From assembly GCA_041670805.1 (NCBI GenBank), contig JBAXYM010000003.1:16406-80405 (forward strand): a stretch of 64,000 nt of DNA, read 5' to 3'. Each line of letters begins with the position of its first letter. The stretch's first letter is position 1. A program made the position numbers and the translations under genes. The notes below the pieces were generated by a model. That model had not been told where the DNA came from and did not search any database. It saw only the letters and a list, made by a program, of their open reading frames with translations. Source of the DNA: Patescibacteria group bacterium. Its GTDB lineage: Bacteria > Patescibacteriota > Minisyncoccia > JAHIHE01 > JAGLIN01. Shown one piece after another: positions 7,381 to 58,445 of the stretch.

Positions 7381-7496
7381 CCACATTTTGCGTATGAGCG
7401 ATTTACCCTGCCAAGCATAAACTTCTCATCCCTCCTAAATGCGGAAGAGGAGGGATTTACCCGGCAGCGGGCATAAACTTCTCATCCCTCCTAAAT

Positions 7497-7622
7497 GCGG
7501 TGTAATCGGGTTAAGTACCCGTAACTTACAGTCAGTATAAGGCTTTTTAGGCGGTTTGGCTAGAAGGGGTTTTGAGGTACTCGGGTCGGGGTCTGAAATG
7601 GCAAAATGAGACAAATGAGACA
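7497..7622. repeat. ~126-bp direct repeat X (copy 1), left end of island A; second copy at 27593-27718 (~88% identity)
   Basis: gcggtgtaatcgggttaagtacccgtaacttacagtcagtataaggc...ggtcggggtctgaaatggcaaaatgagacaaatgagaca; a tRNA-Ser 3' fragment gcggaagaggagggatt sits at 7441-7457 just outside it. Confidence 0.7.
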
Positions 7623-7974
7623 CTTTTAGTAGTTTTCAAATGTGTCCGATTAACCTATTTTTCCTCTATGATTAGCCGAAAAATTAGCGAGACACGATAA
7701 AAAACTGTGTCTCAATCATTATTGAATTTGCGTCTCCGAACAGAATCTGATAGTTAACTAAAAGTCCTAGCTTTAGTAAAAATTTCCGTTTCTTGACTAT
7801 TTTGCATTCTTGTTCTAAATTATAAGGATTATCTAATATTTAAAGTCTAGACTCATAGTTTTCGTATAACTAAGCCTATAGCCTGGACTTTATCCCCCAT
7901 GTTATTAAGATAAAGTCTAGGTATAAACAAAAAGGAGCTAGATAACCACGATACCCCCGAAAAATGTACTCGTA

Positions 7975-8667: not shown

Positions 8668-9244
8668 AACAAAAACACAGACACAGGACAAAAGGAGCAG
8701 GAAATTTATTTTTATTCCTTTCTGTGTACTTTGCCAAGCCTTTCAGGCTCAAGGTATTGTCAGATATGATTTTTCTTCCGTAATGACTGACATTATAGAA
8801 GAAATAATGAAGCACGATCTGAATATAATTCAAATGCCTTGCCCCGAAAGCAAGCTGGGGGGATATAAAAACGGGTTGCAAAGACTTCCGCAAAGCATTA
8901 AAAAATATGATACTCCTGAATTCAGAGAAATTTGTATGAACTGCGCATCGGAGGTTATGGAGCAGATTAAAGCAATCCTAGAAAATGGATATGAAATAGC
9001 AGGTATTTTGGGAATAGAAAACTCTCCTTCATGTTCAATAAAATTGCAATATTCTAACAATGGTGCGTATCGTCAGCCGGGTATTTTTATTGAGGAATTA
9101 AAGAAACAACTTGAGCGAGATGGCATAGAGATTCCCTTACTAGGCATAAACCGAAGAGGAGTAGAAATAACATTAGTCAGGCTGAAACAGATGCTCGATA
9201 CAGATCAGGTATCTGTACAGCAAAAGAATTTGAATGAATTTTAA
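8660..9244 (+). CDS. DUF523/TudS-like [4Fe-4S] protein (divergent paralogue)
   Basis: 194 aa; FCVLCQAF and IQMPCPESKLGG motifs paralogous to the CPE motif of the next gene; start overlaps the PP-loop gene stop. Confidence 0.4.
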   Translation: MSKTKTQTQDKRSRKFIFIPFCVLCQAFQAQGIVRYDFSSVMTDIIEEIMKHDLNIIQMPCPESKLGGYKNGLQRLPQSIKKYDTPEFREICMNCASEVMEQIKAILENGYEIAGILGIENSPSCSIKLQYSNNGAYRQPGIFIEELKKQLERDGIEIPLLGINRRGVEITLVRLKQMLDTDQVSVQQKNLNEF

Positions 9245-9295
9245 TTGCTAACATTATTTTTTGTTAGCTTTTTTATTTTATAATTTCCAACCAAT

Positions 9296-9745
9296 ATGAA
9301 ACTTATCAGCGCCTGCCTGTGCGGAATAAACTGCGCATGGAATGGAAAATCAAAAATTTCCCCAAAGATACTTGAACTTGTAAAATCCGGAGAATTTATT
9401 CCTGTATGTCCGGAACAGCTTGGCGGGCTAAGCACTCCCAGAATTCCGCAAGAAATACAAGGCGGATCGGGGGAAGATGTTTTGGCGGGGAAGTGCAAAG
9501 TTATAAACAAAGAAGGAAAAGACGTAACCGCCCAATTCGTGAGAGGGGCGGAGGAAACATTGAAAATCGCAAAGCTCACGGGAGCGAAAAAATTTATTGC
9601 CAAATCAAAAAGCCCTTCCTGCGGCTGCGGCTTCACTTATGACGGAACTTTTTCCGGCACGCTGATTGAAGGTGACGGCGTTACCACGGCGCTCTTGAAG
9701 CGGAATGGAATAAAGGTGATAAGCAGCGAAAATATCGAGGGATAA
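9296..9745 (+). CDS. DUF523 family protein (2-thiouracil desulfidase TudS-like, Cys-ligated Fe-S cluster)
   Basis: 149 aa; LISACLCGINCAWNG ... FIPVCPEQLGGLSTPRIP ... KSPSCGCG conserved Cys pattern typical of DUF523. Confidence 0.55.
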   Translation: MKLISACLCGINCAWNGKSKISPKILELVKSGEFIPVCPEQLGGLSTPRIPQEIQGGSGEDVLAGKCKVINKEGKDVTAQFVRGAEETLKIAKLTGAKKFIAKSKSPSCGCGFTYDGTFSGTLIEGDGVTTALLKRNGIKVISSENIEG

Positions 9746-14802: not shown

Positions 14803-17430
14803 TTACAAAACTATTTCAGATATAGAAGCTGATTTACTTTTATCTAGAGAATTTGCTTTTATAAACAATTCTATGGCCTCTTTCTCGCTTTTGTCTGACC
14901 AAGCTTTATCTCCTAATTCAGCCAAACATACACTGAATTTATCTGGATTGTAGGCGATCTTAAAATCATTATACTGGAAATATTTTTCCTTTTTATAGTC
15001 TAGTCCTTCTTTCACAAAATGCTTCAAGAAGAAGCCAGTATCTCTCGGATTTTTTCTAAATGTTTTTATGAGGTAATCAGTTACTTCCTCATTACGATCT
15101 CTATCTTCGTCGCTCCAATCAACCGCCCATTGAAAGAGAATAATGGCGAACTCGTTATATTTTTTATACTGTGTAAAAACATTCCTATTTTCCTTAATAA
15201 AATATTTTTTTAATCGTTTTTTGATGATATTTTTTAGTTCTTCATGATTAATATTCTGATGAATTCTATATAAACTGCTGCTTCGACCCTCACTGCAAGA
15301 AAGAACTACCGTAGAAACAAAATCCAAACGTTCTGTTCGTTGAATAATTTCCTTTAAAATCCCTTGAATCTGGTTTTCTTCTATTTTCTTATTGTCTTCC
15401 AATAACCGAAAAATTAATCCGTATGCTTGATTATATTCGTTGTCCCACAAATCTCCACTTTGCATAAATCTGTTACAATTTTGATAAATAACTCTAATCA
15501 ATGTTAGGGCAATCTCTTTGTTAACCTCTTTTGCATACAACTTAAGAAGGTGCAAAAGATCAATTAGTTTTAATTCTTTTTGGTATTTTTCAAAAAACGA
15601 TATTTTGATGTCATTTTCTAAATTATCAGAAAGCTTCCATGCTTTGAGTATGTCATCAAATTCAGAATCAGATATTACGTTTTCACGCACTCCTAATGTA
15701 AAATATTTATAAAAACAATCCGGGTGAGCTATTCTCCTTTTAATTCTGTACTCTTCGACCAAACCTCCATAGCTGTTATTATCAAATGCATTTTTTATCT
15801 CTGGAAAAATATCCTCCAGCAAAGATATAATTATTTTATTATTTTGTGTAATTATTTCTATATGACTCTTTATAGTTTCTCTTTTTTCTCTATCATCATA
15901 TGGCAGGTAAGTATATGCTCTAAGCTCCAAAGACCAAGGAGAGACATAAAACCACCAGTTTTTTCTTATATCATTATATATATCTGGAAAGAAAGTATGA
16001 AAGATTTCTAAAATGAAAAAATCGTATAAGTGTATTTCACGTTCTATAAACGGCAACCTAAAGAAGATACTATTAAGATAACGTTTAGCGGCTCTATATG
16101 TGGGGAAAAATGGTTTTAAATTAGATTGATAAGTTTTTGTAAACTCTTCATCAAACTCCTTTCTTCTAATGCTATCGATCTTGATACCATCAAAAAATTT
16201 ATCAATTTCTGATATGCGTCCGGAATCTGGATATGAAAATAGTAGAAAGTCATCAATCTTTCTATGATCAGTCGATGGCAAATATATCGGCAATTGAATG
16301 ATTTTTTCAACATAATTCACAGGATCGCCTATCTCCTTGTTATTTTGTAAAATTGAAGATACTATCGAAGGGTCAAAACAAAGTAAAAAGACCATATTAT
16401 TCATACGGCTTGTTAGTTTTACAAGCCGGAATACAGCTAGAATCTCATTAGCCTGAAGACGATCAACATCGTCTATAATAACTAAAACTCTCTTGTCTAG
16501 TGAAGCTACAAATTTTTCAATTTTTTCCTTGAGCTTCAACGGTCGATCTTCGGTATTATTATGTAACTGTAAAGATAAATTTGCAAAACCCTTGATTAAT
16601 ACCTCTGGATAGAAATTAAGATAATTCTTCACTTTGTTAGGCACTAAATACTTTTCTTCTAACAACTTCTCTAATCCATGATAAAAGTTCACCGTTAAAG
16701 CATCTTTTTCTCCGAAGAACCAAGGATCAAATTCATAAACTAGCAGTTGTTGGTCATTTTCCAGCTCTCTCTTAAGTAAGTTTAAGACAGATGTTTTACC
16801 TTCCCCCCAACATCCATATAGACCCATGACGAATGATTCTTTAAAAGATAATTTATAAATGTTATCTTTTAATGCATCGGCGAATCTCTTTCTTCCAATT
16901 AGGTCATTGCCATTATCGTTTATCGGCTCATCTGTTAACAGCTTTGTTTGTTCGCCAAGACTATCTATCAATTGATTTTCTATTTTTTTCTCTTTGATTG
17001 TAGACAATAGAGCCTTCAGATATGTTGCTAAAGCAAAAAATATTATAGGGAATAAGACAACTCGAAAGCAAGGTAAATCTAGAAAATGTTTTGATAATAA
17101 CCACCATATGCCTAAAAAACTGACTAAAGACAAACTATCAACAGCAGAAAACTGTGGTTGTTTTATGAAATAAGATTCTCGGTATTTGCGCCAAATTGAA
17201 ATGCCTTTTTTCCAAACGGCTCCAAATATTACTAACTCAAATAATATAATATATTGTGGTGCAGGCAAAAATGGAATAATACTATCAAAAAAATCTTTTA
17301 TATTTGATTGAAAAATTCCAGCAATCCAAAAAAGAAACATACCTGCTGCCGATGAAAGCAGTAAGTCATTAAAATTTATTTGAATATAATTTAAGAGTGC
17401 TACAATTTCTTTGTTTAGGAAATATTTCAT
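14803..17430 (-). CDS. KAP-family P-loop NTPase with four N-terminal transmembrane helices
   Basis: 875 aa; P-loop GLYGCWGEGKTSVLNLL; Walker B-like VLVIIDDVDRL; N-terminal TM segments; adjacent to the type III R-M pair. Confidence 0.55.
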   Translation of the reverse strand: MKYFLNKEIVALLNYIQINFNDLLLSSAAGMFLFWIAGIFQSNIKDFFDSIIPFLPAPQYIILFELVIFGAVWKKGISIWRKYRESYFIKQPQFSAVDSLSLVSFLGIWWLLSKHFLDLPCFRVVLFPIIFFALATYLKALLSTIKEKKIENQLIDSLGEQTKLLTDEPINDNGNDLIGRKRFADALKDNIYKLSFKESFVMGLYGCWGEGKTSVLNLLKRELENDQQLLVYEFDPWFFGEKDALTVNFYHGLEKLLEEKYLVPNKVKNYLNFYPEVLIKGFANLSLQLHNNTEDRPLKLKEKIEKFVASLDKRVLVIIDDVDRLQANEILAVFRLVKLTSRMNNMVFLLCFDPSIVSSILQNNKEIGDPVNYVEKIIQLPIYLPSTDHRKIDDFLLFSYPDSGRISEIDKFFDGIKIDSIRRKEFDEEFTKTYQSNLKPFFPTYRAAKRYLNSIFFRLPFIEREIHLYDFFILEIFHTFFPDIYNDIRKNWWFYVSPWSLELRAYTYLPYDDREKRETIKSHIEIITQNNKIIISLLEDIFPEIKNAFDNNSYGGLVEEYRIKRRIAHPDCFYKYFTLGVRENVISDSEFDDILKAWKLSDNLENDIKISFFEKYQKELKLIDLLHLLKLYAKEVNKEIALTLIRVIYQNCNRFMQSGDLWDNEYNQAYGLIFRLLEDNKKIEENQIQGILKEIIQRTERLDFVSTVVLSCSEGRSSSLYRIHQNINHEELKNIIKKRLKKYFIKENRNVFTQYKKYNEFAIILFQWAVDWSDEDRDRNEEVTDYLIKTFRKNPRDTGFFLKHFVKEGLDYKKEKYFQYNDFKIAYNPDKFSVCLAELGDKAWSDKSEKEAIELFIKANSLDKSKSASISEIVL

Positions 17431-17434
17431 TTTA

Positions 17435-19840
17435 TTAGAATATAATACTATTCCATCCCTTCATCGTTGGAGTATATGAATAATTTTTATCCTGATTAAT
17501 TTTCCACCCGTTGGCATCCTTAACTGCAATTCCACCACAAAAATTCTTTTTTCCCGCTAACCATTCCTGCAAAGCTTCGGCTTTATATTTTGTATCATTT
17601 GATTCGGCAGTAAAGCCTGCTTTAGTATCAATTATCCAAATCTTGTTTTTGGTCTTTATAATCCAGTCAGGATAAAATAGTTTTTCTTTATTCTCGTCAG
17701 GGTTATAATAAGAGATTGAGAAATATTCACTACCAGAATCTCCATTTTTATACCACCATTCAATATCGTTGCTTTCTTCTAAGAATTTAATAAAGAATTT
17801 TTCATTTTCTACTACTTCCTTGCTAATATAGAACGGCTCCATAGCAGAATATTTAACTTTCATATCCTGATAACTATCAGTAAAAAATAAAGAAGGTCTA
17901 GGTATCTCTATAATCTCAATTCTCTTGGAACGAACAGCTTTCTTATTTACTTCCTGGTCGCGGATAGGCCTATAAGTCTCCAATGCCTCTCCGATAATAG
18001 GACGTAAAACTCCAGATTCCTTCAGAATGTCATTTAGTATTGCCTTGTAAGCATCATTACGATTATCACCAAGCATTGGAATTAGCCATACATTTAAAGC
18101 GGTTTTTAATTTTCCCCAAGAACGTTCTGGTGCAAATTTCTTATTCTCATCCGTCTGCTTGCTAATAATATTAAAGCAGACAAGGTTGTATAATCTCTCA
18201 ATATCGTTTTGAGACATTTCTTGATCATGATTTCCTCCCTCGGCTAATAATTCTTTAACGAAATTATCGTAATCATCAATTTCCACACCGACAATAATTC
18301 CGTTAGTTACGCTTGGTTTTATGTCAAAATCCTTGGCAATCAGCTTTTTTTTAGCATCTTTATCTCCGTCTTTAATCCCAAAATATTTATTAGCTATTTT
18401 TTTAAAAGTAGTCTGGAATGAATCGCCGAGATCGTTATAGTCCGAACGGCCCATAAATACTGATTCGATCTGGATTGGCTCAATATTCTTTTTGCGATAA
18501 CTGCCAAAAATTGCCGGTTTATTTTCAGATTTATTCTTGTCATATTCACTAATTACCTCATTGCGTTTATAATTAGTATACAAATAACCTAAATTTAGTT
18601 CTGGTTTGCCATAATGGGTGCCAGTTGGCATGCGAAGAATCCTACCTACAGTTTGAATGGCAAAGGTAGGATTTTTTATTTCCCTAAACATAACCAGCAC
18701 ACCAGCACGAGGACAATCCCAGCCAGTGGCTACGGCTTGTTTGAAGAGTAAAAATTCAATCGGAGAATCGTTCTTTTCAATGTCATCAAGATTAACTTTA
18801 TCTTCAGACAGCCAAATAGCGATGTTATTTTCTAAAACACCTTTCTTTTTTAAAAATTCTACAACTATATCTTGTTTGCTAGTACTGCTTGTTTCCGCCG
18901 AAGCTTTGTCATCATTCGGAAGTTGAATAAGTACCAGGGGATTAATATCTAAACCTAATTCCTTGTAGTATTTTACCAGCTCAATTCGTCTATTATATGC
19001 AAGCTCAAGAAGAATCTCATCTTGATCCATATGTTTGAATTGTTTTTGATTCAAATCTTCTTCGGTCTGAAAAATAATCTTTTCTTTTATTAGTCCTTCT
19101 CGCACAACATCTTCACGTTTCACTCGAACAAACCCAGCTTGATTGTCTTCTATGTCGCTAAGAGTCGGTTCGTATTTTGGAGTTGCAGAAGCACGGATGA
19201 TGATTTTAGGTTTAATTAAACCATCAATAAGTTCAAGAGCTTTGTCGGTGTCAGCTCCAAGATGTTCTTCATCAATAATCACTATGATTTCCCTTTTCTC
19301 TTCATGAGTAGCCTCAATCATTCCATCAAAAGAAACATCCTGTTCGTTTTCACGCCTAATTTTTAAAACTTCTTTCGATTGTCCTTTTAATTTTTCCCAA
19401 TTTATGAAAAAAACACTGTTGTGAGTAAGTACCTTGTGATTAAGATCATTTATATCCAAAAGCTCCAATTCCGAAGCGCCGCCATAATACTCAAAGAGCT
19501 TATTCTTGCTCTGCTCAACAAGAGTAGGGCCTTTGGACATCCATAAAAAAGCAGCGTCGTTACCAACAAAACGAGGATCAGAAACAATATCACGTAAAAA
19601 TTGTGCTAACATCACAGTTTTTCCTGACCCTGTTGGAGATTTGAAAACTAGAGGCAGTTGATTTTCAGAAGTTTTCCATAAATCTAAAAACTGATCTTTA
19701 AGTTTAGCTATGGCAGTTTCCTGAAATGGTTTTAGTGCAAACATATTATAGGCGATTAATTTCTTTATAAACTTCAAGAATTGGTTCTGGAATATCTTCA
19801 ACATGAATATTGTCAGAGCTATATTCGTTGGTATACTCAT
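17435..19840 (-). CDS. res: Type III restriction enzyme Res subunit (SF2 helicase-nuclease)
   Basis: 801 aa ORF; motif I FKSPTGSGKTVMLAQF, motif II IIDEEHL; a likelier start is the internal Met at 19744 (MFALKPFQETAI), which removes the 95-nt overlap with mod. Confidence 0.65.
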   Translation of the reverse strand: MSIPTNIALTIFMLKIFQNQFLKFIKKLIAYNMFALKPFQETAIAKLKDQFLDLWKTSENQLPLVFKSPTGSGKTVMLAQFLRDIVSDPRFVGNDAAFLWMSKGPTLVEQSKNKLFEYYGGASELELLDINDLNHKVLTHNSVFFINWEKLKGQSKEVLKIRRENEQDVSFDGMIEATHEEKREIIVIIDEEHLGADTDKALELIDGLIKPKIIIRASATPKYEPTLSDIEDNQAGFVRVKREDVVREGLIKEKIIFQTEEDLNQKQFKHMDQDEILLELAYNRRIELVKYYKELGLDINPLVLIQLPNDDKASAETSSTSKQDIVVEFLKKKGVLENNIAIWLSEDKVNLDDIEKNDSPIEFLLFKQAVATGWDCPRAGVLVMFREIKNPTFAIQTVGRILRMPTGTHYGKPELNLGYLYTNYKRNEVISEYDKNKSENKPAIFGSYRKKNIEPIQIESVFMGRSDYNDLGDSFQTTFKKIANKYFGIKDGDKDAKKKLIAKDFDIKPSVTNGIIVGVEIDDYDNFVKELLAEGGNHDQEMSQNDIERLYNLVCFNIISKQTDENKKFAPERSWGKLKTALNVWLIPMLGDNRNDAYKAILNDILKESGVLRPIIGEALETYRPIRDQEVNKKAVRSKRIEIIEIPRPSLFFTDSYQDMKVKYSAMEPFYISKEVVENEKFFIKFLEESNDIEWWYKNGDSGSEYFSISYYNPDENKEKLFYPDWIIKTKNKIWIIDTKAGFTAESNDTKYKAEALQEWLAGKKNFCGGIAVKDANGWKINQDKNYSYTPTMKGWNSIIF

Positions 19841-21470
19841 TCTTGCCCCAACTGAAAATATATAGGGCAGCAGGTTGCTTTCTTTTTTCTAATATACCAA
19901 CTAGGTTATGTAATTTCTCTTTGTCCTCCTTAAAGTAAATAGCTGTAATTTTTCCCAATCCTTCAAATATTTGCCACCAATTATTTTTCTCAACTTCATT
20001 TAATGTGCTTTCGCGCAAAGCAATCATTTCACCAGCCTGATAAGTTAACTTAATTTTTGCATTATCTGGTGTACCATGTAATTTTTCGATATCGACCAAA
20101 TCAGTTTTATAATAGCGAAGATTGCCACCTAAGCCTTCTACTTGCTCTCCTTTTTTATTTTTATACCCCTTCATTACACGCTTAATTCGTTCATATGTTA
20201 CTTCTTCACAGATGTTATTTTCGTTATTTGTGCATAGAATAAATTTGCGGTTCCCGCCATCTTGTTTATTTAATTCAAGAACAGCATGGCCGGTAGTACC
20301 TGAACCCGCAAAAAAATCAAGTACTTTAATGTTTTTTGTGATTGATCCCATTTCAATGATTCTCTTTATCATTTCTACTGGCTTTGGATATCCGAATATC
20401 TTTTTTTCAAGAATTTCCTTTAGCAGCAATGTTCCTTTTTCTGTATTTACATCTTTATCGTCCCAAATCGAGCGCACCATCTTTTCTTTCTTTCTATATT
20501 TTTCAACTATCTGATATCCGCCATCTTGCATCTTTTTCGCAGCTATTTCAATATTAAGATTTTCTAAGGATTTAGACTTACCCCATCTCCAGACTGTTTT
20601 TATGCCCTGTGACTCTTTAGGAAAAAGCTCAAACCAGCCAGGCTTTTTATCTAGGGATATTTCAAAAAAACCGTTGTCTAATTGTTTATTAGGATTGATA
20701 TAAAAGGGGTAATAAAGATTCGGTCTATTTTTATCATTAAAAGCAATGTTGCGATTCCTTAATTCTCTGGTTTCAAATCCGCCTAATGCATCCTGAAACG
20801 GAAATTCCTTATTCTCATCAGATATGCTGAATATTTCAGATTGATCAGTTGATGAATACACCAAAACATAGTCGTGCATTCTAGCAACGCCACCATAGTC
20901 ACGTCCTCGAGGGTTACCTTTAACGGTTATAGATGCTCGATAATTATTTTCTCCAAAAATAATATCACAGAGTGATTTTAAATTTGCATACTCATTGTCA
21001 TCTATGCTAATAAAAATTAGGCCTGTTTTCTTAAGTAAGTTTCTTGCTAAGGTTAGCCTATTATACATAAAAGAAACCCACTTGCTGTGACGAAAGTTAT
21101 CATCCAAATCCACAAATTTATCATTATAGGCAAAATCTTGATTGCCGGTGTTATAGGGCGGATCAATATATATGACATCAAAACTATTTTTATGGGTATA
21201 ATTCAGAACTGTTAAGGCATGATAATTATCCCCCTCAATCAAAATATTTTCATCCTTCGATTTGTCTGTGATAATCACAGGATCGATTTCCTTCCTTTTT
21301 TCTTTTAGTTGTAGGATAGGTATATTGCGTTTACAATCCATAACAATTTCTTCTGGTTTATCTTCCCAAACTAAACCATAAGTTTTTTGCTTCTTAATTT
21401 TCTTAAGCTCAGTTTCTAGCTCGGAAATTCTCTGCAATAGGGTTTTTTCTTTATTTTGATCCAACATCAT
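19746..21470 (-). CDS. mod: Type III-like DNA methyltransferase (Mod), beta-class N6-adenine MTase
   Basis: 574 aa; motif IV VIYIDPPYNTGN followed by motif I VLDFFAGSGTTGHAV; immediately upstream of res on the same strand. Confidence 0.7.
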   Translation of the reverse strand: MMLDQNKEKTLLQRISELETELKKIKKQKTYGLVWEDKPEEIVMDCKRNIPILQLKEKRKEIDPVIITDKSKDENILIEGDNYHALTVLNYTHKNSFDVIYIDPPYNTGNQDFAYNDKFVDLDDNFRHSKWVSFMYNRLTLARNLLKKTGLIFISIDDNEYANLKSLCDIIFGENNYRASITVKGNPRGRDYGGVARMHDYVLVYSSTDQSEIFSISDENKEFPFQDALGGFETRELRNRNIAFNDKNRPNLYYPFYINPNKQLDNGFFEISLDKKPGWFELFPKESQGIKTVWRWGKSKSLENLNIEIAAKKMQDGGYQIVEKYRKKEKMVRSIWDDKDVNTEKGTLLLKEILEKKIFGYPKPVEMIKRIIEMGSITKNIKVLDFFAGSGTTGHAVLELNKQDGGNRKFILCTNNENNICEEVTYERIKRVMKGYKNKKGEQVEGLGGNLRYYKTDLVDIEKLHGTPDNAKIKLTYQAGEMIALRESTLNEVEKNNWWQIFEGLGKITAIYFKEDKEKLHNLVGILEKRKQPAALYIFSWGKNEYTNEYSSDNIHVEDIPEPILEVYKEINRL

Positions 21471-21691
21471 ATATTTTAATTTTCATCATTGTTAATTTTT
21501 CAATAATAGTTTTTACAACCTATTAGAAATCGGTATTAAACTATCGTTACTTTACCTCTTTTTACGCTAAAAGTAAAGAAAAATTGGCAATTCCATATCG
21601 TTTAGAAGACTTAAGTTATCAACAGCTAGTAGTCTGGACGCCCCGCGTGCTATGTGTCATTCATTGTAGTGTAATAAATAAGGGAAAATGT

Positions 21692-23014
21692 ATGGAAATT
21701 AAGGAATTTCAGACTCCAAATCAAATAATCACTGCAAAAGAAGACATAAAATATTGTCTATATGCCCGTAAATCAACCGAATCGGAAGAAAGGCAGGTCC
21801 TTTCGATAGATAGTCAAGTCAAAGAAATGTTGGAGCTAGCAAATCGAGAGAACTTGAATGTTATCGAGATAAGGAGAGAATCCCACAGTGCCAAAGAAAC
21901 TGGCCAGCGAAAAATATTCAACGAACTTGTAGCAGATATTAGAACGGGTAAATTCAATGCTATCCTTACTTGGGCACCGGACAGAATATCCAGAAATGCC
22001 GGAGATCTGGGAGCGATAGTAGATCTGATGGATCAAGGAGTATTGAAAGAAATCAGAACTTATGGACAGAAATTCGGAAATAATCCTAATGAAAAATTTT
22101 TACTGATGATATTAGGATCCCAAGCTAAACTTGAGAATGATAATCGAGGAGTTAATGTCCGGCGTGGATTACGGACCAGAGCAGAGATGGGACTATGGGT
22201 AGGAGTGGCACCGCTGGGGTACTTAAACCAAAAAAGAATGGACAAGAAGTGCCAAGTTATCCAAGATCCATTAAGAGCTCCTGTGATTAAGCAGATATTT
22301 GAAAAAGTAGCTTATGAGAAATATAGCGGAAGACAAGTATATAACTGGCTAAAACATGACCTTAATTTCTACACTAGAGGTAACAAACCATTAACCTTAA
22401 GCGGAGTATATAGAGTTTTGGATAACCATTTCTATTATGGCATGTTTGAACGACCAGTCGGAAGTGGTAATTGGTACCACGGAAAACACAAAACCTTAAT
22501 TACACAAGAACTATTTGAAAAAGCCCAGGCACAATTAAAACGAGATAAGATTGTTAGGGAAAACAAAGAGTTTGCATTTACTAAGCTAATCACTTGCGGA
22601 TTATGTGGATCGGGAATATCAGCAGAAGAAAAATATAAAGAACTCAAAGACGGAACAACGGCTCATTACATTTATTATGGATGCAGTCGGGCCAGAGACA
22701 GGGATTGCAAGAATAAGTATATCCGAGAAGAGGAACTTATCGCGGAACTTTTAAAAATACTTGATAAGATAGATATAAATGAACTAGGAATGAGAACTAG
22801 ACTAGAGATGGAAGTTGATAGGTTTAACAAATTCCAAAACATGGTATTCGGAGAAAAATCTAGTATTAAAAAACAAAAGCCCGCAGTTGATTTGCGAGTT
22901 TATGCAAAATATGTGCTTAAAGAAGGAAGTGCTACGGAGAAGAGAGAATTACTGGCTAATTTGAGAAGCAGGATAGTGTTGAGAGAGAAGAGGTTAACGC
23001 TAATTAAAGAGTAA
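21692..23014 (+). CDS. Large serine recombinase (resolvase/invertase-type catalytic domain plus recombinase and zinc-ribbon domains)
   Basis: Catalytic CLYARKSTESEE (Ser nucleophile), C-terminal CGLCGS...YYGCSRAR zinc ribbon; ORF track begins at 21584 but the paralogue 42332-43651 and an RBS-like aagggaaaa support the Met at 21692. Confidence 0.8.
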   Translation: MEIKEFQTPNQIITAKEDIKYCLYARKSTESEERQVLSIDSQVKEMLELANRENLNVIEIRRESHSAKETGQRKIFNELVADIRTGKFNAILTWAPDRISRNAGDLGAIVDLMDQGVLKEIRTYGQKFGNNPNEKFLLMILGSQAKLENDNRGVNVRRGLRTRAEMGLWVGVAPLGYLNQKRMDKKCQVIQDPLRAPVIKQIFEKVAYEKYSGRQVYNWLKHDLNFYTRGNKPLTLSGVYRVLDNHFYYGMFERPVGSGNWYHGKHKTLITQELFEKAQAQLKRDKIVRENKEFAFTKLITCGLCGSGISAEEKYKELKDGTTAHYIYYGCSRARDRDCKNKYIREEELIAELLKILDKIDINELGMRTRLEMEVDRFNKFQNMVFGEKSSIKKQKPAVDLRVYAKYVLKEGSATEKRELLANLRSRIVLREKRLTLIKE

Positions 23015-24551
23015 AGTTTTCAGGAAATATTTTTTTAATATAATTATCATCAAATAATTCTTTGATTACCACTGAGTGTTCTTTACAATAATTATTAGTA
23101 TAGGAATAAAAGGGCCAAGTGCTTTTTTCTTTATCCAATATCTTGGTTTCAATAAAGGATTTAAATGAAGTCTGCTGCATAGCTTGAATGGCAATTTCAA
23201 ATTCTTCAATACACATTATCGAATATGGATATTTTTCCAAGAGTTCTAGTGACAGCTTATTTTCTCTAAACAGATTAATAACCTTTTCTTTTACTAAGTT
23301 ATTAACACCGATATCATTATGGCCCGACATAAACCAGTTCTCTAAAGTCAATATCAAAGGATATATTGATTGGTTATTATATTTGCAACTGGTATATAAG
23401 TTGTTTAAATAATCATCTAATGTTTTATAAAGTTGAAAAATACCTTCCGCTAAAATGCTATAATCTTTATCAGCTTTTTCATTAATATCTATCAATATTT
23501 GAGAGTCTATCGACAATCTTTTAGCTTTGCATTCGATGAATAATAGTTCTTTATTGTCGCTTACGATAAAATCAACTGTCTTTTTTGGAATTCCAGGTCT
23601 GGGATAATATTCTTCATCTCGATAAATTCTGAGATTTCGCAAATTAGTCTTTTCCAAAACTTCATTTATATAATTCTCGAAAGCTTTCCCATAAATATTA
23701 TCAAAGTCCTTTTCTTTTACGAGATCATAATATACACCTCCTGTTAACCTCCAAAATAAAAAGGTCGGTATAGGGCAAATCAATGCTTCCTTTCCCATAT
23801 TAGTGCATCGGATAATTGGGTAATATCTGAGCGGATTAAATTGATATAGAAAATTCTCATCTATTTTATTGGAATTGGCTATTATCTTTTTAAAATTTGA
23901 AATGTCTTCGGCAAAATATTTGAGAAATTTATCAAGCTTTTCTTTATTAATTTCTTCTACCTCAATTTGTGGTGGATAATATATTATAAGATTGTTTATA
24001 TAAACTCTCAATAATAACATGCCTATTGTATATATATCTTTGATGGATAGACCATATTTATTTTGAACGATAAAATCAATATTTTCATCGCTATAGATCG
24101 AAAAATATCTAAACATCATGGAAGACTGCGGTTTTTGTATTTGCCAGGGTGATTCTAGAAAAAATATCCTGCGCAACTCACTAAGTATATTGGTTTGATT
24201 TAAATATAGCTGAGATATCTTCCCTTCCAGTGTCTTTAATTTATTAATTGAATCAGCTAAATAATCCCATTTTTTTAAAGATGATAGGAATTGATTTGGT
24301 TCGATATCTTGGGCATTTAAAATTATTTCTCTGGCCAATGTAGCAAGATTCCATTCAGCCATCCATCTTCTTTTTTCAATATCATTTGCTTGCAAATACT
24401 CCCTTATAACTTGGACGTCTTGTGGCAATGATTGGCTGAACTGAAGATATTGCATGTATGCCCTAATAACACCAAGAGATTCCCATAAAGGGACTTTTCT
24501 GAGTTTGTTCCTGAGTGGTTTATAATAGCTAAACAATGAATCTTCTAGCAT
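23004..24551 (-). CDS. Hypothetical protein with a possible PD-(D/E)xK nuclease core
   Basis: 515 aa; KTVDFIVSDNKELLFIECKAKR fits a D...ExK motif; co-oriented with and upstream of the helicase gene. Confidence 0.3.
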   Translation of the reverse strand: MLEDSLFSYYKPLRNKLRKVPLWESLGVIRAYMQYLQFSQSLPQDVQVIREYLQANDIEKRRWMAEWNLATLAREIILNAQDIEPNQFLSSLKKWDYLADSINKLKTLEGKISQLYLNQTNILSELRRIFFLESPWQIQKPQSSMMFRYFSIYSDENIDFIVQNKYGLSIKDIYTIGMLLLRVYINNLIIYYPPQIEVEEINKEKLDKFLKYFAEDISNFKKIIANSNKIDENFLYQFNPLRYYPIIRCTNMGKEALICPIPTFLFWRLTGGVYYDLVKEKDFDNIYGKAFENYINEVLEKTNLRNLRIYRDEEYYPRPGIPKKTVDFIVSDNKELLFIECKAKRLSIDSQILIDINEKADKDYSILAEGIFQLYKTLDDYLNNLYTSCKYNNQSIYPLILTLENWFMSGHNDIGVNNLVKEKVINLFRENKLSLELLEKYPYSIMCIEEFEIAIQAMQQTSFKSFIETKILDKEKSTWPFYSYTNNYCKEHSVVIKELFDDNYIKKIFPENFTL

Positions 24552-24621
24552 TTTTATATAAGATTAAACTCTAAATATCTTTATTATAATTATAAGGGCA
24601 GTAACTATTGAAAAATATGAC

Positions 24622-27330
24622 TTAGAGATTAAACTTTGATGACAACAACGCTGCATCTCTTCCATTGTTTCTTTTTTCTAATCCACTCAATACTTTATTT
24701 TCTGTTTCTGCCGTCCAATATATTTTTAATTTCTCCTTTGCACGTGTTATAGCCGTATAAAAAATATTATGCGAAATCATTTCCTCAATCTCGTCAGTAA
24801 TAACAATTTTAACCGAATTATATTCCAATCCTTGAGCCTTATGGATTGAAACGGCATAAGCAATTTGAAACGGAACTATAGTGTCTGAAGCAGAATCATC
24901 ATCTTCATCGGTACTTCTGTGTTTGTTAACAAAAAAACGAATTACTGATTTGCTCTTATCGGAATTTGGCATCAATTGAAAATCATATCTCTCTGCATCA
25001 AGCTGATTTATTACCTTATCATCAAGCTCAATATCGAATTGAATTTTATCATTAAAAATTTCTATACCAACTATTTTGCCTTTTAAGTTGTTATAAATCA
25101 AAGGCGCGAATCTTTCTGATTCATTAAACAAAATAGGGTCGTTAACTTTATAAGTGTGAACGCCCCATTGCATAGGAGCATTTTCATTATTCCCTTGCAA
25201 AAATCTGTTGATATTATTTATTCCGTAAAGTCCGTCATAGTTTAAACATAAAATTATTTCATCCTCTTCGGAGTGTTCAAAAATTGATTCGTCTAAGACA
25301 ATTGAATACTTATTTTTCGTAATGTGCTCCAAAATATCTTCATCTATATTTCTAACCCTATTCCACAATGTAAGCAAATGGGGATTATTACTACGATAAG
25401 GTTTAATCAATTCAAATATAGAAGTTTTTGGAACAAAAGACTTCGCTATATTAAACCAGTTTCCAAAAAGTATTGATTCTATCTGAAAATCATCGCCTAC
25501 CAAGACTAATAATTTAAAGGATGCTTTCTCTAAAACTTTACGCATATCAGAATTGCTAACCGTACTACACTCATCAATAATTAATAAATCAAATTCAGTA
25601 TCAGAATTTTTCTCAGATAAAAATTTAGCTATTGTTTTAAAGGTGCCATTAGCAGCATTCACTCTTCTTCTTAAATTATCAACTGCCGGATTAGTATTCG
25701 CCAAATAGAGCTTGCTTTCATTATTAAAGAAGTTCGATATATAGTTTATCATGGTAGATTTCCCTGTTCCGGCAGAGCCATATATAAGAGCCACCATTGA
25801 ATTCTCAAACATCTTTCTCAAAGCTTCTTTCTTTTCGGGACAATCAATGTGATAAGTTAGCGACTGCAACCATGCATTAACAGAGTTTGAGTAGTTTTTT
25901 ACACCACTCAAGGATAGATCTTTAAGTTTTTGAATAATTTGGAGAGTATCTTTTTCGTAGCCTCTTATATAGATATAATCTTTATAACTTTCTAATCTGC
26001 GATCTGTATGTTTATAGTACAGGGCCTTATTATACAATTGTATGAGACTATCAATATTTTCAAAGCCGGTTATATCTTTTTTGGAAATGTAAAGCTGTCC
26101 TTTTATTTCGGTATTGTTTCTTATAAATCTTGCGAATATCTCATGTGTTCGATTTGTTGAATCTATACAATCAAATAAATCTGAGCTTTTTGGATTATGA
26201 TCTATTAATGAAGTATTAAGCGGCATTTGATCAAATGGGATGCATCCGTATTTAAGATTTAAATTTGATAATTTTTCACATTCCTCATTCTCATATTGTT
26301 GTTTAATAATTTTATTGTTTAGCTTATAAAGCAAATATCTAATAACATTACTTCCCTGGCTATTGTTTTTTATTAGTTCACGACTTTTATCTAAAGCATC
26401 CAAGAAATGAGTCGTCTTCGCTTTTTGAGTGATCTGGCTTTTAATACTCTGATAATAATTATCTGCAAAATCAATAGTTTCAACGAGATTCAGATTATAT
26501 GCTGTTAAAAATTTCATTAATTCACGATATTCAATATTTCCACTTTGTATCTTGGAGTGACTGCCAAATATATCAGCAAAATGATCAAGTTCACACGGAC
26601 GAATTGATACTTTCCAACCATCAATAATTTGAATAGGCATTTCTTTACCCAAAATTTGTATATTATCGTTGCTTATTAATAGCTTTACAGCATAATTTTG
26701 AGATATATCAAGTTTTGTAAACGCAATAATCCTATCGAATTTGCTTGCTTTGTCGTTAGCTGTTGTAAAAGTCACCTCGTAATAGACTTCACAACTGATA
26801 AAAAACGGTTTTATTTTCTGAATATAATATCGATCGTCATAGGTGTTTTTTATCCTCGTTGATTCTGGCTGGTTAATTTTTTCAACTATTTTCTCATAAT
26901 AGTCTTGAAGGGCAGGATCGGTCTTTATGGGAAATTTACTTATATTATCAAGAACATCAAGATCGTAAGTGTTTTTTAAAAACGTTTTTATTCTTAGCAA
27001 GTATTCATAATATTTTAGCATTAATCTTACTGAATTATCTTCATCAGGGGTATAATGAGAAGCAGTAATTTGCAAGAGTTTATGAAGTTTTCTTAAAAAA
27101 GTTAAATCTCCTCTAGTTTTTATATAAGCATTTGCTTTTACAATATTATCATAAGTATTTTCAATATCCTGCCCGTTGCTATATATTTTCAGTGAAATAT
27201 GCTCAACGAAATTTCTAAGTTGTGATAAGATATTCTGCGATAACAAGTCTCTGTCACAGGGATCAAACTTTTCAATATTATTACAAATAACTTTATCAAT
27301 TCCTAGAATTTCATCATCAATTTTATTCAT
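24622..27330 (-). CDS. SF1 (RecD/Pif1/UvrD_C-like) helicase with an unrecognised ~500-aa N-terminal region
   Basis: 902 aa; Walker A ALIYGSAGTGKST, Walker B LLIIDECSTV, C-terminal AVSIHKAQGLEYNSVKIV ... FYTAITRAKEKL. Confidence 0.6.
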   Translation of the reverse strand: MNKIDDEILGIDKVICNNIEKFDPCDRDLLSQNILSQLRNFVEHISLKIYSNGQDIENTYDNIVKANAYIKTRGDLTFLRKLHKLLQITASHYTPDEDNSVRLMLKYYEYLLRIKTFLKNTYDLDVLDNISKFPIKTDPALQDYYEKIVEKINQPESTRIKNTYDDRYYIQKIKPFFISCEVYYEVTFTTANDKASKFDRIIAFTKLDISQNYAVKLLISNDNIQILGKEMPIQIIDGWKVSIRPCELDHFADIFGSHSKIQSGNIEYRELMKFLTAYNLNLVETIDFADNYYQSIKSQITQKAKTTHFLDALDKSRELIKNNSQGSNVIRYLLYKLNNKIIKQQYENEECEKLSNLNLKYGCIPFDQMPLNTSLIDHNPKSSDLFDCIDSTNRTHEIFARFIRNNTEIKGQLYISKKDITGFENIDSLIQLYNKALYYKHTDRRLESYKDYIYIRGYEKDTLQIIQKLKDLSLSGVKNYSNSVNAWLQSLTYHIDCPEKKEALRKMFENSMVALIYGSAGTGKSTMINYISNFFNNESKLYLANTNPAVDNLRRRVNAANGTFKTIAKFLSEKNSDTEFDLLIIDECSTVSNSDMRKVLEKASFKLLVLVGDDFQIESILFGNWFNIAKSFVPKTSIFELIKPYRSNNPHLLTLWNRVRNIDEDILEHITKNKYSIVLDESIFEHSEEDEIILCLNYDGLYGINNINRFLQGNNENAPMQWGVHTYKVNDPILFNESERFAPLIYNNLKGKIVGIEIFNDKIQFDIELDDKVINQLDAERYDFQLMPNSDKSKSVIRFFVNKHRSTDEDDDSASDTIVPFQIAYAVSIHKAQGLEYNSVKIVITDEIEEMISHNIFYTAITRAKEKLKIYWTAETENKVLSGLEKRNNGRDAALLSSKFNL

Positions 27331-27543
27331 ATTTTTACCTTCATTTATATGTTGAAAAGATAGACACCTGATCTGCTTTCATATTTATAATATGCCTTAA
27401 AAAGACCGAAAAGTAAAGAATAAAATGAACTTACTATCAGTCAAACGGTAGTGGTTTTTGCTTATAACAAAAACCAGATCCAATTGGATCTGGTTTCACG
27501 CAGGGGGTATGTTTGGTTTGTCCTTGTAGTTTAACATAGAAAA

Positions 27544-27718
27544 CACCCAACAAAATCTGGGTATTCGGGTCTATCCGATACTAAATTGTCTTGGCGGTGT
27601 AAGTGGGTTAAGTACCCATAGCTTACAATCAGTGTAAGGCTTTTCAGGCAGTTTGACTAGAAGCGGTTTTGAGGTACTTGGGTCGGGGTCTAAAATGCAG
27701 AATGAGACAAATGAGACA
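27544..27718. repeat. Junction of islands A and B: ~54-bp repeat Y (duplicate of the tRNA-Ser 3' end plus downstream flank and dyad hairpin) directly followed by repeat X copy 2
   Basis: 27553-27596 ctgggtattcgggtctatccgatactaaattgtcttggcgg matches 47869-47912; 27593-27718 matches 7497-7622. Confidence 0.7.
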
Positions 27719-27748
27719 GTATAAAAATAAATATGTTCTTGTCTCATT

Positions 27749-28807: not shown

Positions 28808-29377
28808 ATAAAAATAAGATTATTTTAAATATTTTATCATATAACTGATTATAAAGAAATAATCAGTCGTATAGCTGATTTTAGGTGCTTATATGAGAAG
28901 CAAGACGAGGCAAAGAAGACATAATATATTGTAAGGATTGCAAACATATGTTTCGTCTCATTTGACACAATATTTCCATATGTGATATATTATTAATACA
29001 ATTTAATAAACCTGTATCTCTCTAAGACAAAAGAGGGCGAATAAAATTTATGTTAGAACCTTGTTCAAAAAACTACATAAATAATATTCATTGTTCTATT
29101 TTGTTTGAGATAGAATTTCATTTCAGTTTTGAGGCAGTGCCACAAAAATCAAAACAAGGATGATTATTCGGATGGATTTCTAATGCTCTATATGTTCTTA
29201 TCGGGTCCTTTGACCAAAAAGGATAAGACATATATCAAGGTTATAAATCGAAGGAAATAAACAAGCTTATGCTGTTTGTTGCTTTTGATTCATAACCTTT
29301 TTTGATTAAGCAATACCCAGCTAACTTGCAGCTGGGTATTTTATTGTCCAGCAAAACTAATAAAATAATCAATACTT

Positions 29378-32806: not shown

Positions 32807-33067
32807 AGTTTTGTAGGATAGGTTTTTTAAATTGTTTCTGGCTCAGAATACAAAAAGGGTCTTCCGAACCAGCTGGTGAATCCTTCCGGAGACACCACTA
32901 CCTCCTTTCGAAGATAGACCTATCCTACAAGTACTAGTCAGAAGACCGTTGCTATGTAGGATAGGATTTGATTACCATGCCCTGACCGAAGCCAGAGTTT
33001 AGGCAATTTATGAGTATATAGTAGCACAAATATAGAAAATGGGAAGTCTTAGTTACCTACAGTTTAT

Positions 33068-37174: not shown

Positions 37175-37375
37175 CAGAGATTAACCTTTTTTCTAATTCT
37201 TCTGAGGTATCCTCTAAGCTGATAAGGCTTTCAGCTAGAGATTTTAAGCCATTATCCTGAGTTTCGGATATAAAATTTATTAATAGATCGTCCATGTAGT
37301 TAAGAATCTAGTTTATTTAATTACTCAATTAATGGGGCATATAACATTTTTACTTTGATCAATATTCGCCCCATT

Positions 37376-41566: not shown

Positions 41567-41576
41567 ATTTAATAAG

Positions 41577-42122: not shown

Positions 42123-42331
42123 AGTAAATATTTATCATATTTCCTTCTTTTTGTAGAAATTGTCTTCATGAATCACAATAAATCACCATTACTTTACATC
42201 ATTTTTCGCTAAAAGTAAAGAAAAATCGGCAATTTTATACAATTTTATAGCATTAGTTATCAACAGCTGGTAGTCTGGACGCCCCACGTTCTATGTGTCA
42301 TCCATTGTAGTGTAATAACTAAGAACAATAT

Positions 42332-43651
42332 ATGGAAATAAACGGACTTCAGACCGCAAACCAGACAATCATAGCGAAGGAAGAAATAAAGTATTGCCTC
42401 TATGCCCGCAAATCAACCGAATCAGAGGAACGGCAAATCCTCTCAATTGATAGCCAAGTCAAAGAGATGCTGGATCTGGCAAACCGGGAAGATCTGAATG
42501 TTATAGAAATAAGGCGAGAATCACATAGCGCTAAAGAAACCGGACAGCGCAAGGTGTTTAATGAGCTTGTAACAGATATTAGGGCAGGTAAATTCAATGC
42601 CCTCCTCACTTGGGCCCCGGACAGAATATCACGAAATGCTGGAGATTTAGGAGCGATCGTAGATCTGATGGATCAAGGAATATTAAAAGAGATCAGAACT
42701 TACGGTCAGAAATTTAGCAATAACCCAAATGAAAAATTTTTGCTTATGATTCTAGGATCGCAGGCGAAACTGGAAAATGACAACCGAGGAGTCAATGTCC
42801 GGCGAGGATTAAGGACAAGAGCAGAGATGGGATTATGGGTAGGATTGGCACCTCTCGGATATTTGAATCAAAAACGAATGGATAAGAAATGTCAGGTTAT
42901 TCCAGACCCATTAAGATCTCCAGCTATTAAACAGATATTTGAAAAAGTGGCGTATGAGAAATATAGCGGACGACAAATACATAACTGGCTCAAGCATGAT
43001 CTTAACTTTTATACCAGAGGAAACAAGCCGCTAACTTTAAGTGGAGTTTATAGAGTCTTAGACAATCACTTTTACTATGGCATGTTTGAAAGGCCAGTTG
43101 GAAGCGGAAATTGGTATCATGGAAAACATAAAACACTTATTACCCAAGAACTTTTTGAGAAAGCGCAAGCACAACTTAAAAGAGATAAGATTGTCAGAGA
43201 AAATAAGGAATTTGCATTCACCAAACTAATTACCTGCGGGCTATGTGGTTCAGGAATATCAGCCGAAGAAAAATATAAAGAATTGAAGGATGGAACCACA
43301 GCTCATTATATTTATTATGGATGTAGTCGAGCAAGAGACAGATTTTGTAAGAACAAATATATTAGAGAAGAAGAACTCGTTGTTGAACTTCTTAAGATAA
43401 TTGATAAGGTAGATATAAACGAACTTGGAATGCTGACAAGACTTGAGATGGAAGTTGATAGATTCAATAAATTCCAAAACATGGTCTTTGGAGAAAAACT
43501 TAATAATAAAAAACAAAAGCCCGCAGTTGATATGCGGGTTTATGCAAAATATGTGCTTAAAGAAGGAAGTGTGACAGAGAAGCGAGAGTTATTAGCTAAT
43601 CTGAGGAGTAGAATAATATTGAGAAATAAAAAGCTAATATTAAATGATTGA
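42332..43651 (+). CDS. Large serine recombinase (paralogue of 21692-23014)
   Basis: 439 aa; same catalytic and zinc-ribbon motifs; near-identical over most of its length; preceded by a ~120-bp leader conserved with 21560-21690. Confidence 0.8.
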   Translation: MEINGLQTANQTIIAKEEIKYCLYARKSTESEERQILSIDSQVKEMLDLANREDLNVIEIRRESHSAKETGQRKVFNELVTDIRAGKFNALLTWAPDRISRNAGDLGAIVDLMDQGILKEIRTYGQKFSNNPNEKFLLMILGSQAKLENDNRGVNVRRGLRTRAEMGLWVGLAPLGYLNQKRMDKKCQVIPDPLRSPAIKQIFEKVAYEKYSGRQIHNWLKHDLNFYTRGNKPLTLSGVYRVLDNHFYYGMFERPVGSGNWYHGKHKTLITQELFEKAQAQLKRDKIVRENKEFAFTKLITCGLCGSGISAEEKYKELKDGTTAHYIYYGCSRARDRFCKNKYIREEELVVELLKIIDKVDINELGMLTRLEMEVDRFNKFQNMVFGEKLNNKKQKPAVDMRVYAKYVLKEGSVTEKRELLANLRSRIILRNKKLILND

Positions 43652-47791: not shown

Positions 47792-47857
47792 TATGAAATT
47801 AGTCTTTAGTCATAAAGGTCGAAAAATAATACAACTTCAAATTTTATTAGCATGAAA

Positions 47858-47912
47858 ATACCCAGCAAAAGCTGGGTATTCGGGTCTATCCGATACTTTG
47901 TTGTCTTGGCGG
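47858..47912. repeat. ~54-bp repeat Y copy 2 (dyad hairpin, tRNA downstream flank and last 6 nt of tRNA-Ser); right end of island B
   Basis: atacccagcaaaagctgggtattcgggtctatccgatactttgttgtcttggcgg; duplicated at 27544-27596. Confidence 0.7.
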
Positions 47913-47996
47913 AAGAGGAGGGATTCGAACCCTCGAGACCCGTTAAGGTCTACTGCTTTTCGAGAGCAGCGCTTTCAACCACTCAGCCACCCTTCC
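47907..47996 (-). tRNA. tRNA-Ser (anticodon CGA), type II with long variable arm, CCA encoded
   Basis: rc reads GGAAGGGTGGCTGAGTGGTTGAAAGCGCTGCTCTCGAAAAGCAGTAGACCTTAACGGGTCTCGAGGGTTCGAATCCCTCCTCTTCCGCCA; anticodon loop CUCGAAA with U33 and A37; T-arm GGTTCGAATCC. Confidence 0.85.
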
Positions 47997-58440: not shown

Positions 58441-58445
58441 GATTT

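Follow-up and report, generated by a model that had tools for sequence, protein, structure and literature searches.

Two tandem genomic islands, A and B, lie in the 64,000-nt stretch of Patescibacteria DNA analysed here (the window), and each contains a gene for a large serine recombinase (LSR) that is preceded by a conserved, non-coding leader. The interpretation favoured in the present study, with some reserve, is that this leader is a dedicated cis-regulatory region of the island integrase gene, in which a box recognised by a protein is followed by a hairpin that acts on translation. The leader is a module conserved across a clade of tRNA-targeting LSRs from Patescibacteria-type and unclassified metagenome assemblies. 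A first-pass annotation of the window had proposed that the leader is a conserved regulatory or recombination site, possibly the operator or the attachment (att) site of the recombinase itself; the regulatory proposal agrees with the selection statistics and the family-wide module described below, an operator is possible, and the att junctions are predicted to lie elsewhere.

Local alignment of the two LSR neighbourhoods runs from 21547/42189 to 23008/43644 and ends at both sides, so that the aligned block extends from about 145 nt before the ATG through the stop codon of the gene. The leader strings quoted in the first-pass annotation are where it placed them, and the similarity does end at the recombinase stop, as it had said. 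Over the leader as a whole, 118 of 137 positions are identical (86%), with 84% identity in the stretch 21537-21597 versus 42179-42239 and 93% in a 69-nt core (21614-21682 versus 42255-42323). The genes themselves share about 82% of their nucleotides and their products 91.5% of their residues; third codon positions are 41% different and four-fold degenerate sites 52%, and with dN = 0.045 and dS = 2.14 (nonsynonymous and synonymous divergence) the synonymous sites are saturated. Since the leader retains 86-93% identity despite this saturation, it must be under selection: at the identity rate of four-fold sites, the chance of at least 64 identities among the 69 core positions is 1e-15, and that for the whole leader is 4e-21. 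The five differences in the core sit at positions that are also variable across the family, and the conservation of the two leaders reflects purifying selection. The saturated dS likewise excludes a recent duplication, in line with the earlier view that no recent segmental duplication was involved. The accompanying claim, that the leader is conserved at a level like that of the coding region, was right about conservation and wrong about the level, as the core exceeds the coding DNA (93% versus about 82%).

The two proteins are predicted LSRs on both of the domain criteria applied: the resolvase domain with its serine nucleophile (PF00239) matches at E = 1e-18 in both, and PF07508 and PF13408 (Recombinase and zinc ribbon) both exceed the cut-off. 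The catalytic motif reads YCLYARKST in LSR A and is invariant as YCLYARKS-E among 17 relatives, as are the four cysteines of the zinc ribbon, and the best relatives in the PDB are of the SPbeta LSR. They are paralogues, as annotated.

The leader was compared across about 100 related LSR loci (designated L001 and onwards), which supplied 103 upstream regions. The metagenome loci among them are the best 80 of at least 576 LSR relatives, are phylogenetically related and come from records that bear no organism label; the labels of the relatives' assemblies are mostly Patescibacteria (Paceibacterota, Parcubacteria, Saccharibacteria), with five metagenome-assembled genomes of uncultured Gammaproteobacteria. 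LSRs of the leader family are 57-84% identical to LSR A, and the clade spans 57-91% in protein sequence. A blastn search with the leader gave no similarity in the first 24 related loci, a method blind to it because the motif is short and interrupted; anchoring the loci on the start codon exposed a common pattern, which was defined by pattern matching with mismatches. Its central part is a bipartite box of CTGGAC, 13-14 free bases and G(C/T)G(T/G)CAT, present in 95 of the 103 upstream regions and spanning 27 nt in 87 of these and 26 nt in the other 8, the upstream block being CTGGAC, CTAGAC or CTTGAC. One or two AGTTAYCWAC units precede the box in 11-bp phase, the last of them ending 9-10 or 19-20 nt before it, and some relatives carry AAGGGCTTT-type repeats farther upstream. 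The ATG follows 10-13 nt past the box in 69 of 91 sequences, and in the remainder a hairpin is inserted between the two. Both window copies conform to this module (Table 1).

The pattern is specific to LSR genes. Over 1.08 Mb, a weight matrix of the box gave 88 hits before LSR genes, five before adjacent small genes and only one elsewhere, and a motif-first scan of IMG/VR for the box returned two matches, both immediately before LSR homologues. GTTAYCWAC was met 94 times in 2 Mb (both strands); leaders account for 54 of these sites, every one in the plus orientation. No conserved regulator gene adjoins the leader across the related loci, where it is preceded by a type III Mod methylase gene (20 loci, divergent), a TerL-like gene (9 loci) or an unrelated gene. 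Three other explanations of the motif were tried and rejected: a small minus-strand reading frame from the ATG of GCGTCAT would have 5-13 codons and lacks conservation, in-frame stops break up an N-terminal extension of the LSR at most loci, and AGTTAYCAAC is not a DnaA box, as the leaders contain no strict boxes and position 6 is A and not C.

The small genes preceded by a box lie just upstream of the LSR gene (L045 5297, L050 5297, L056 3700, L061 844 and L086 3256). None has a Pfam match, and in three of the five an AGTTAYCWAC unit is present as well. The first four specify a 109-aa protein starting M-N/D-D-I-E-A-I-I-D-A-S-K-H-F, a candidate partner of the integrase such as a directionality factor or regulator, and the gene in L086 specifies a 222-aa membrane-like protein.

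The box is probably protein-recognised DNA, a putative promoter or operator, because its two blocks are invariant and keep a fixed distance across a free spacer, with phased direct repeats in front of them. Single-sequence folds of the box are attractive as an RNA hairpin (outer GACGC/GCGTC, inner GGACUCC/GGGGUC), a candidate that was rejected on negative results from shuffles, RNAalifold and pair counts: RNAalifold found 0 consensus pairs, the two helices were 68.4% paired versus 67.3% in shuffled sequences, with 5 versus 4.1 double changes, and an alternative inner helix never varies. Permuting the spacer barely alters the folding energy (z = -0.33 and -0.74), and Rfam 15 yielded no family for the leader, either at gathering score (the window and 10 loci) or at E <= 10 over 21480-21760, where nothing credible appeared. 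As for promoters, no sigma-70 promoter (TTGACA-17 +/- 1-TATAAT; A2, T6) is common to leaders A and B, and none was found in 73 of 92 upstream regions; the host does use promoters of this type, as with TTGCTT..TATACT before tRNA-Leu. A sigma-54 geometry, judged by eye on motif alignments, was discarded, the distance from GG to GC being 18 and not 12. The spacing does fit the -10 element of promoters of the extracytoplasmic function (ECF) type, with CGTC found 15 nt (14 in 8 cases) after GGAC. In some loci just about 45 nt separate the box from the stop codon of the gene before it. The box is missing from L082, which has in its stead an extended -10 promoter, TCGGCA-N18-TGgTATAAT, about 60 nt before the LSR ATG.

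The segment that follows the box suggests that the translation start is covered by an RNA hairpin. This hairpin starts at or just past CAT, either enclosing the start region or pairing with it, and is present in only about 40-60% of loci. The best-stem score is 6.7, compared with 5.5 +/- 0.12 in shuffles; the mean z for minimum free energy is -1.0, with 25% of sequences below -2. When 5' arms were paired with their own or with a swapped partner, taken from a locus with a different arm, the scores were 6.61 and 5.66, and scores of at least 7 were reached in 42% versus 16%. The arms vary by subfamily (CAUUAAUGUUG/CAACAUUAAUG, CCCUUGUAUU/AAUACAAGGG and CAUUGAU/AUCAAUG), and G-T to A-C mismatches stand at 23:18 against an expected 232:417 (p = 0.012), favouring an RNA of the sense strand. 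In the window, the pairing read from the sequence is 8 bp with 21727-21734 in leader A and 7/8 in leader B.

The leader does not appear to be the site where the LSR cuts and joins DNA, and the att junctions are predicted to be at the tRNA-Ser gene. Leaders are found inside the islands, away from the element-host junctions (7497, 27594 and 47907). An att half-site profile scored leaders at -19.2 versus -19.7 for random 109-nt windows, with 1% above the 95th percentile of the background, and direct alignments of leaders A and B with attL, attM and attR on both strands gave no significant similarity (p 0.08-0.95). The idea that the leader is the LSR's own att or recombination site is rejected by this profile scan and these alignments, together with the location of the junctions at the tRNA-Ser 3' end. 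Alignment of the leaders with the att repeats, the check offered with that idea, gave a negative outcome, and the leader shows no inverted-repeat architecture around a central dinucleotide. From the junction sequences alone, the crossover would be placed within TTGTC-NNN-GCGG. Small likenesses between leaders and att arms do exist: the 8-mer CTCGGGWC is enriched (10 in leaders and 7 + 4 in att arms, versus 27 in about 2 Mb), the left arm of the window aligns with the leader of L039 over 43 nt with a score of 33 (99th percentile of shuffles, 20) and matches the leaders of L045 and L050 at 16/18, and within the window ACTYGGGWC is found in the two left arms only. These may leave room for a common accessory protein, but not for a crossover site.

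On the favoured interpretation, the leader would work in three layers. The AGTTAYCWAC units, with the AAGGGCTTT-type repeats in some loci, would be binding sites for a DNA-binding regulator. Ten bases on, the box would be the promoter of a non-housekeeping sigma factor or an activator-dependent promoter, with TGGAC as a -35-like and CGTCAT as a -10-like element, or alternatively an operator. Finally, the hairpin over the ribosome-binding region and start codon would limit translation of the integrase, possibly on read-through transcripts alone, as in the fold-back inhibition of IS10 and IS50. In those elements a hairpin sequesters the start region of the transposase gene, with the 5' arm placed at or before the promoter of the element itself, so that only read-through transcripts fold.

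A number of observations weigh against this scheme. The hairpin is weak in the window copies themselves (z = +1.8 and -0.6), and the hairpin and leader statistics in general rest on shuffles of related sequences, so that their independence is overstated. Box position 25-28 is where the 5' arm starts in 41 of 60 cases, and a transcription start about 7 nt past CGTC would therefore cut the hairpin; this position fits fold-back, and fits equally a transcript that starts upstream and contains the box. Fold-back also predicts stronger hairpins behind co-directional genes, and this failed (6.72 versus 6.83 for divergent ones). The -35-like element of the box has GAC and not the AAC of ECF promoters, and the -10-like element is not TAnnnT. 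The spacer of the box is G+C-rich and somewhat self-complementary (z = -0.74), and in L040 a TATAAT lies 3 nt before the box, which would place the box in the transcript. L082 and L040 thus point opposite ways on whether the box is the promoter.

Much of this bears on another explanation, not very likely but with a real claim to attention, that the box and its flanks act in RNA, as a 5' untranslated element that is read by the LSR, a recombination directionality factor or a ribosomal factor and controls translation beside the start-codon hairpin. The hairpin directly adjoins the CAT of the box, and long-form leaders, through their inserted hairpin, still have the box beside the AUG; the excess of G-T over A-C mismatches, the G+C-rich spacer with its hairpin tendency even in an island of 33% G+C, the TATAAT upstream of the box in L040 and L010, and the plausible co-transcription where a TerL-like gene stops about 45 nt upstream are all in keeping with it. 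The box helices, however, show no covariation and belong to no Rfam family, and a fixed span with two invariant blocks around a free spacer is more typical of recognition of DNA by a protein. It is unlikely that the leader is a recombination or accessory site (a pseudo-att, an arm-type site or a site of cassette exchange) for the LSR or a directionality factor, coupling recombination to integrase expression. The enrichment of CTCGGGWC, the likeness of the window left arm to the leaders of L039, L045 and L050 and the restriction of ACTYGGGWC to left arms could be understood in this way, as could the limitation of the similarity between islands A and B to the leader and gene, with different cargo on both sides. 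Against these stand an att profile at background, alignments with att at p >= 0.08, a lack of inverted-repeat architecture, and the distances of 14 kb and 4.5 kb from leader to island ends, as well as the fixed distance of the box from the start codon and its occurrence before genes that do not encode recombinases.

We think it very unlikely that the AGTTAYCWAC and AAGGGCTTT repeats, which make up the upstream half of the leader, are part of a divergent unit, notably the LOOT RNA discussed below, or to a shared island regulator. The frequent GTTACCAAC-type motif beside LOOT copies on the opposite strand (14/20), the eight loci in which LOOT, motif, box and LSR succeed each other and the placement of the motif in L057 speak for it, but LOOT is absent from the neighbourhood of most motif-bearing leaders (54 motifs versus about 10 adjacent LOOTs), the distance from motif to box is fixed at 10 or 20 nt, and no LOOT adjoins the leaders of the window. 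Passive conservation, with a functionless leader carried along in a recent duplication or gene conversion of the LSR cassette, is scarcely credible. The similarity is indeed confined to one block, and LSRs A and B (91.5%) are far more conserved than the other backbone genes common to both islands (39-55%), but this explanation is refuted by the synonymous divergence (dS = 2.14; 52% at four-fold sites), and the motif recurs at about 90 independent metagenomic loci, with the differences in the core falling at family-variable positions.

The LOOT RNA is represented in the window by one gene in island B (Table 1), with a repeat unit of the type found in leaders, GTTACCTAC, at 33052-33060 (+), 48 nt past its 5' end. 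The LOOT profile has 26 copies in the collected loci (e.g., L005 9662-9782, L017 65-184 and L057 2379-2504), 20 of them on the strand opposite to the LSR gene. In 14 of these 20 a GTTACCAAC-type motif lies 80-119 nt past the LOOT 5' end, whether or not an LSR gene follows, and in eight loci LOOT, motif, box and LSR gene stand in direct succession; five further copies are on the same strand, 40-60 nt past the LSR stop. In L057 the motif lies between LOOT and the promoter of the operon with the ParB-methylase gene. From these arrangements, LOOT and the repeat unit appear to be linked to the integration module. LOOT was rejected as an antisense partner of the leader (mean z = +0.12; -40.6 kcal/mol with its own leader versus -40.8 with that of another locus), and in the papers found by a literature search no function had been assigned to it. 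A further idea, which we regard as speculative and improbable, is that leader and LOOT work together in a single regulatory circuit of the mobile islands of Patescibacteria-type assemblies, the box being an operator, in RNA or in DNA, that is read by an island-encoded or LOOT-dependent factor. If true, LOOT would be a component of serine-integrase modules, such as a riboregulator or a cofactor of integration and excision; it would thereby acquire a functional context for the first time, and no earlier case of RNA-linked LSR control would be known.

Large serine recombinases are widely used as genome-engineering tools, and little is known of the natural control of their genes; for Patescibacteria (the candidate phyla radiation), almost nothing is known of gene regulation or mobile elements. 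The leader module of about 90 nt gives a way towards the regulator or sigma factor controlling when islands with defence genes move, serves as a marker for such islands in metagenomes, and gives a genomic context to the orphan LOOT RNA.

Several known systems resemble parts of what is described here. The LSRs share domain architecture and catalytic motif with large serine integrases of phages (SPbeta SprA, phiC31, Bxb1 and the A118/LI type), and there is a conserved half-site of about 30 bp by the crossover, as expected of half an attP; unlike in those phages, the att arms are about 55 bp (right) and about 130 bp (left) long, and the left arm mimics the 3' half of the tRNA. Literature searches found no described counterpart of the family-wide integrase leader. 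The hairpin over the recombinase start recalls IS10 and IS50, but its strength is independent of the orientation of the upstream gene, and the enzyme is an island serine integrase and not a transposase. For the integrase gene intS of KplE1, the control sites reportedly overlap attL, which the gene abuts. The leaders of the window, in contrast, are kilobases from both junctions and do not resemble them. The idea of tight, dedicated control of an integrase gene by nearby sites is nevertheless common ground (PMC2951348). ECF-class promoters have an AAC signature at -35, a CGT(C/A) element at -10 and spacers of 14-17 bp (PMC5758882); the box likewise has two short, near-consensus blocks, one of them a CGTC of the -10 type, and a spacer in that range, but its upstream block is GGAC and the hairpin arm overlaps the expected start site. 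Finally, the ssrA islands of Dehalococcoides, with the serine integrase DsiB, are found in tandem at the 3' end of a tRNA-like gene and are bounded by its repeats (PMC3146451). As in those islands, an LSR beside the junction and genes for ParB-domain and DNA-modification proteins form a conserved module with variable cargo, but here the target is tRNA-Ser (in relatives also Asp, Gln, Leu, Glu and Arg), the assemblies are mostly labelled Patescibacteria, the cargo is anti-phage, and there is one LSR with no small partner of the DsiA type. No conserved integrase leader is described in the Dehalococcoides paper (PMC3146451).

Table 1. Positions of the leaders, integrase genes, att arms and associated features in the window.
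Feature	Position	Strand	Basis and remarks
Left-end arm of island A (P' arm)	7497..7625	+	88% identity to island B arm
Leader A, non-coding, between divergent type III Mod methylase gene and LSR A	21547..21691	+	alignment limits
5' block of leader A (partner 42189-42239)	21547..21597	+	conserved between the two window copies only, except AAAGTAAAG
AGTTATCAAC repeat unit ('b' motif), 10 nt before box (partner 42255-42264)	21614..21623	+	GTTAYCWAC occurrences
Bipartite box of leader A, CTGGAC-N14-GTGTCAT, 27 nt	21634..21660	+	family pattern and weight matrix
Box-to-ATG segment of leader A, TCATTGTAGTGTAATAA...	21661..21691	+	site of hairpin 5' arm in relatives
LSR gene A, integrase of island A	21692..23014	+	440 aa; ATG 21692; Pfam Resolvase/Recombinase/Zn_ribbon_recom
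Left-end arm of island B (P' arm)	27594..27722	+	repeat; mimic of tRNA 3' half, AAGGCTTTT-type repeats, ACTTGGGTCGGGGTCT, ATGAGACA repeats
LOOT RNA gene, island B	32875..33005	-	Rfam RF03000, 63.7 bits
Leader B	42189..42331	+	alignment limits
Bipartite box of leader B	42275..42301	+	
LSR gene B, integrase of island B	42332..43651	+	439 aa; ATG 42332; Pfam, 91.5% identity to A
Right-end att arm of island B (P arm; ...CGGGTCTATCCGATACTTTGTTGTCT)	47854..47906	+	repeat; island A partner 27539-27592
tRNA-Ser(CGA), attachment target, attR side	47907..47996	-	ARAGORN and Rfam

The islands themselves are delimited by repeats of the tRNA-Ser 3' end (the att junctions) at about 7.5, 27.6 and 47.9 kb and by a fall in G+C from about 45% to about 33% between 7.5 and 48 kb, which together indicate two tandem islands at this gene. 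With a tRNA gene, repeats of its 3' end and an integrase gene inside, they are tRNA-targeting genomic islands. Besides the LSR, their shared backbone comprises a ParB-methylase (53% protein identity), a methylase (55%) and a small-terminase-like protein (39%). The leaders are about 14 kb from the left island ends, and the LSR genes are followed by 4.3-4.6 kb of cargo, their stop codons being 4.6 kb (A) and 4.3 kb (B) from the right junctions. Among the related loci, all 61 that have a downstream tRNA gene have it convergent on the LSR gene, and these tRNAs are 48 Ser, 6 Asp, 3 Arg, 2 Gln, 1 Glu and 1 Leu. In 14 of the loci the tRNA 3' end lies 80-150 nt past the LSR stop, and in the rest this distance is up to 6 kb. 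To describe the recombinases as internal and not terminal, as was done at first, is therefore correct by coordinates but misleading: because the same gene lies 80-150 nt from the tRNA in 14 relatives, the LSR is the terminal module for integration, behind which a slot for cargo has opened. The view that the segment distal to each LSR gene is acquired, variable cargo is borne out by the same range of gaps. Paired LSR genes are also seen in relatives, 2.9 kb apart in L036/L038 and as two paralogues in L019, each copy with its own leader, so tandem or nested islands would seem to be common in this LSR family.

Beside the tRNA end the family consensus is CGGGTC-N3-CCGATA-N2-AAATTGTC-N3-GCGGAG, the size expected of one LSR half-site. 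The left arms are conserved over about 130 nt, far beyond the usual length of such a half-site, and are made up of the tRNA 3'-half mimic (GCGGTGTAA..GGGTTAAGTACCC), phased repeats of the AAGGCTTTT type, GAGGTACTCGGGTCGGGGTCTGAAA, which resembles the leaders of other loci, and ATGAGACA repeats, two of them direct and with an inverted partner deeper inside. Left arms were also found in L001 (9680-9814) and L008 (266-347), and in L001 the arm is just about 190 nt before the LSR start. A minimal element would accordingly consist of left arm, leader, integrase gene and right arm, with cargo apparently entering two slots that flank the integrase gene. The comparison thus displays island growth, in which a minimal cassette gains defence genes both before and behind its integrase gene.

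Anti-phage cargo occupies both slots of each LSR (14803-21470, 23004-27330, 34766-42122 and 43662-47791), and islands A and B carry different anti-phage genes on either side of it. The kinds represented are a PifA-like KAP NTPase, type III restriction-modification, a PDC-S53 helicase, a PDC-S06 ATPase, a PDC-S37/Hhe helicase-nuclease, and a multiubiquitin/E1/DUF6527 set with LexA-like and SEC-C proteins. Island A also has, at its left end (8660-9745), a pair of neighbouring paralogues of the 2-thiouracil desulfurase family, one with a strong and one with a weak Pfam match, an unusual cargo beside DNA methylases.

Some smaller features are also worth recording. The 5' block of leader A may contain a local promoter, TTTACM-N17-TAAAGA, and its AAAGTAAAG is present in L021, L027, L067 and L045 as well. 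Outside island A, a 30-nt exact duplication (7415-7444 and 7471-7500) around a degenerate tRNA-Ser 3' end, AATGCGGAAGAGGAGGGATTTACCC, looks like the scar of another, lost insertion at the same site. A family of repeats of about 130 nt is present in both orientations in host intergenic regions (7115-7404, 56090-56239, 58338-58473 and 62047-62374); these repeats hold TTCGGATCACACCAGAAATGGTGTGAA hairpins and are similar to miniature inverted-repeat transposable elements or repetitive extragenic palindromes. Terminator-like hairpins, ATACCCAGC-loop-GCTGGGTAT, are found in the right att arms at 47858-47879 and 27543-27564, and again at 29313-29345, upstream of the ParB-methylase gene of island B.

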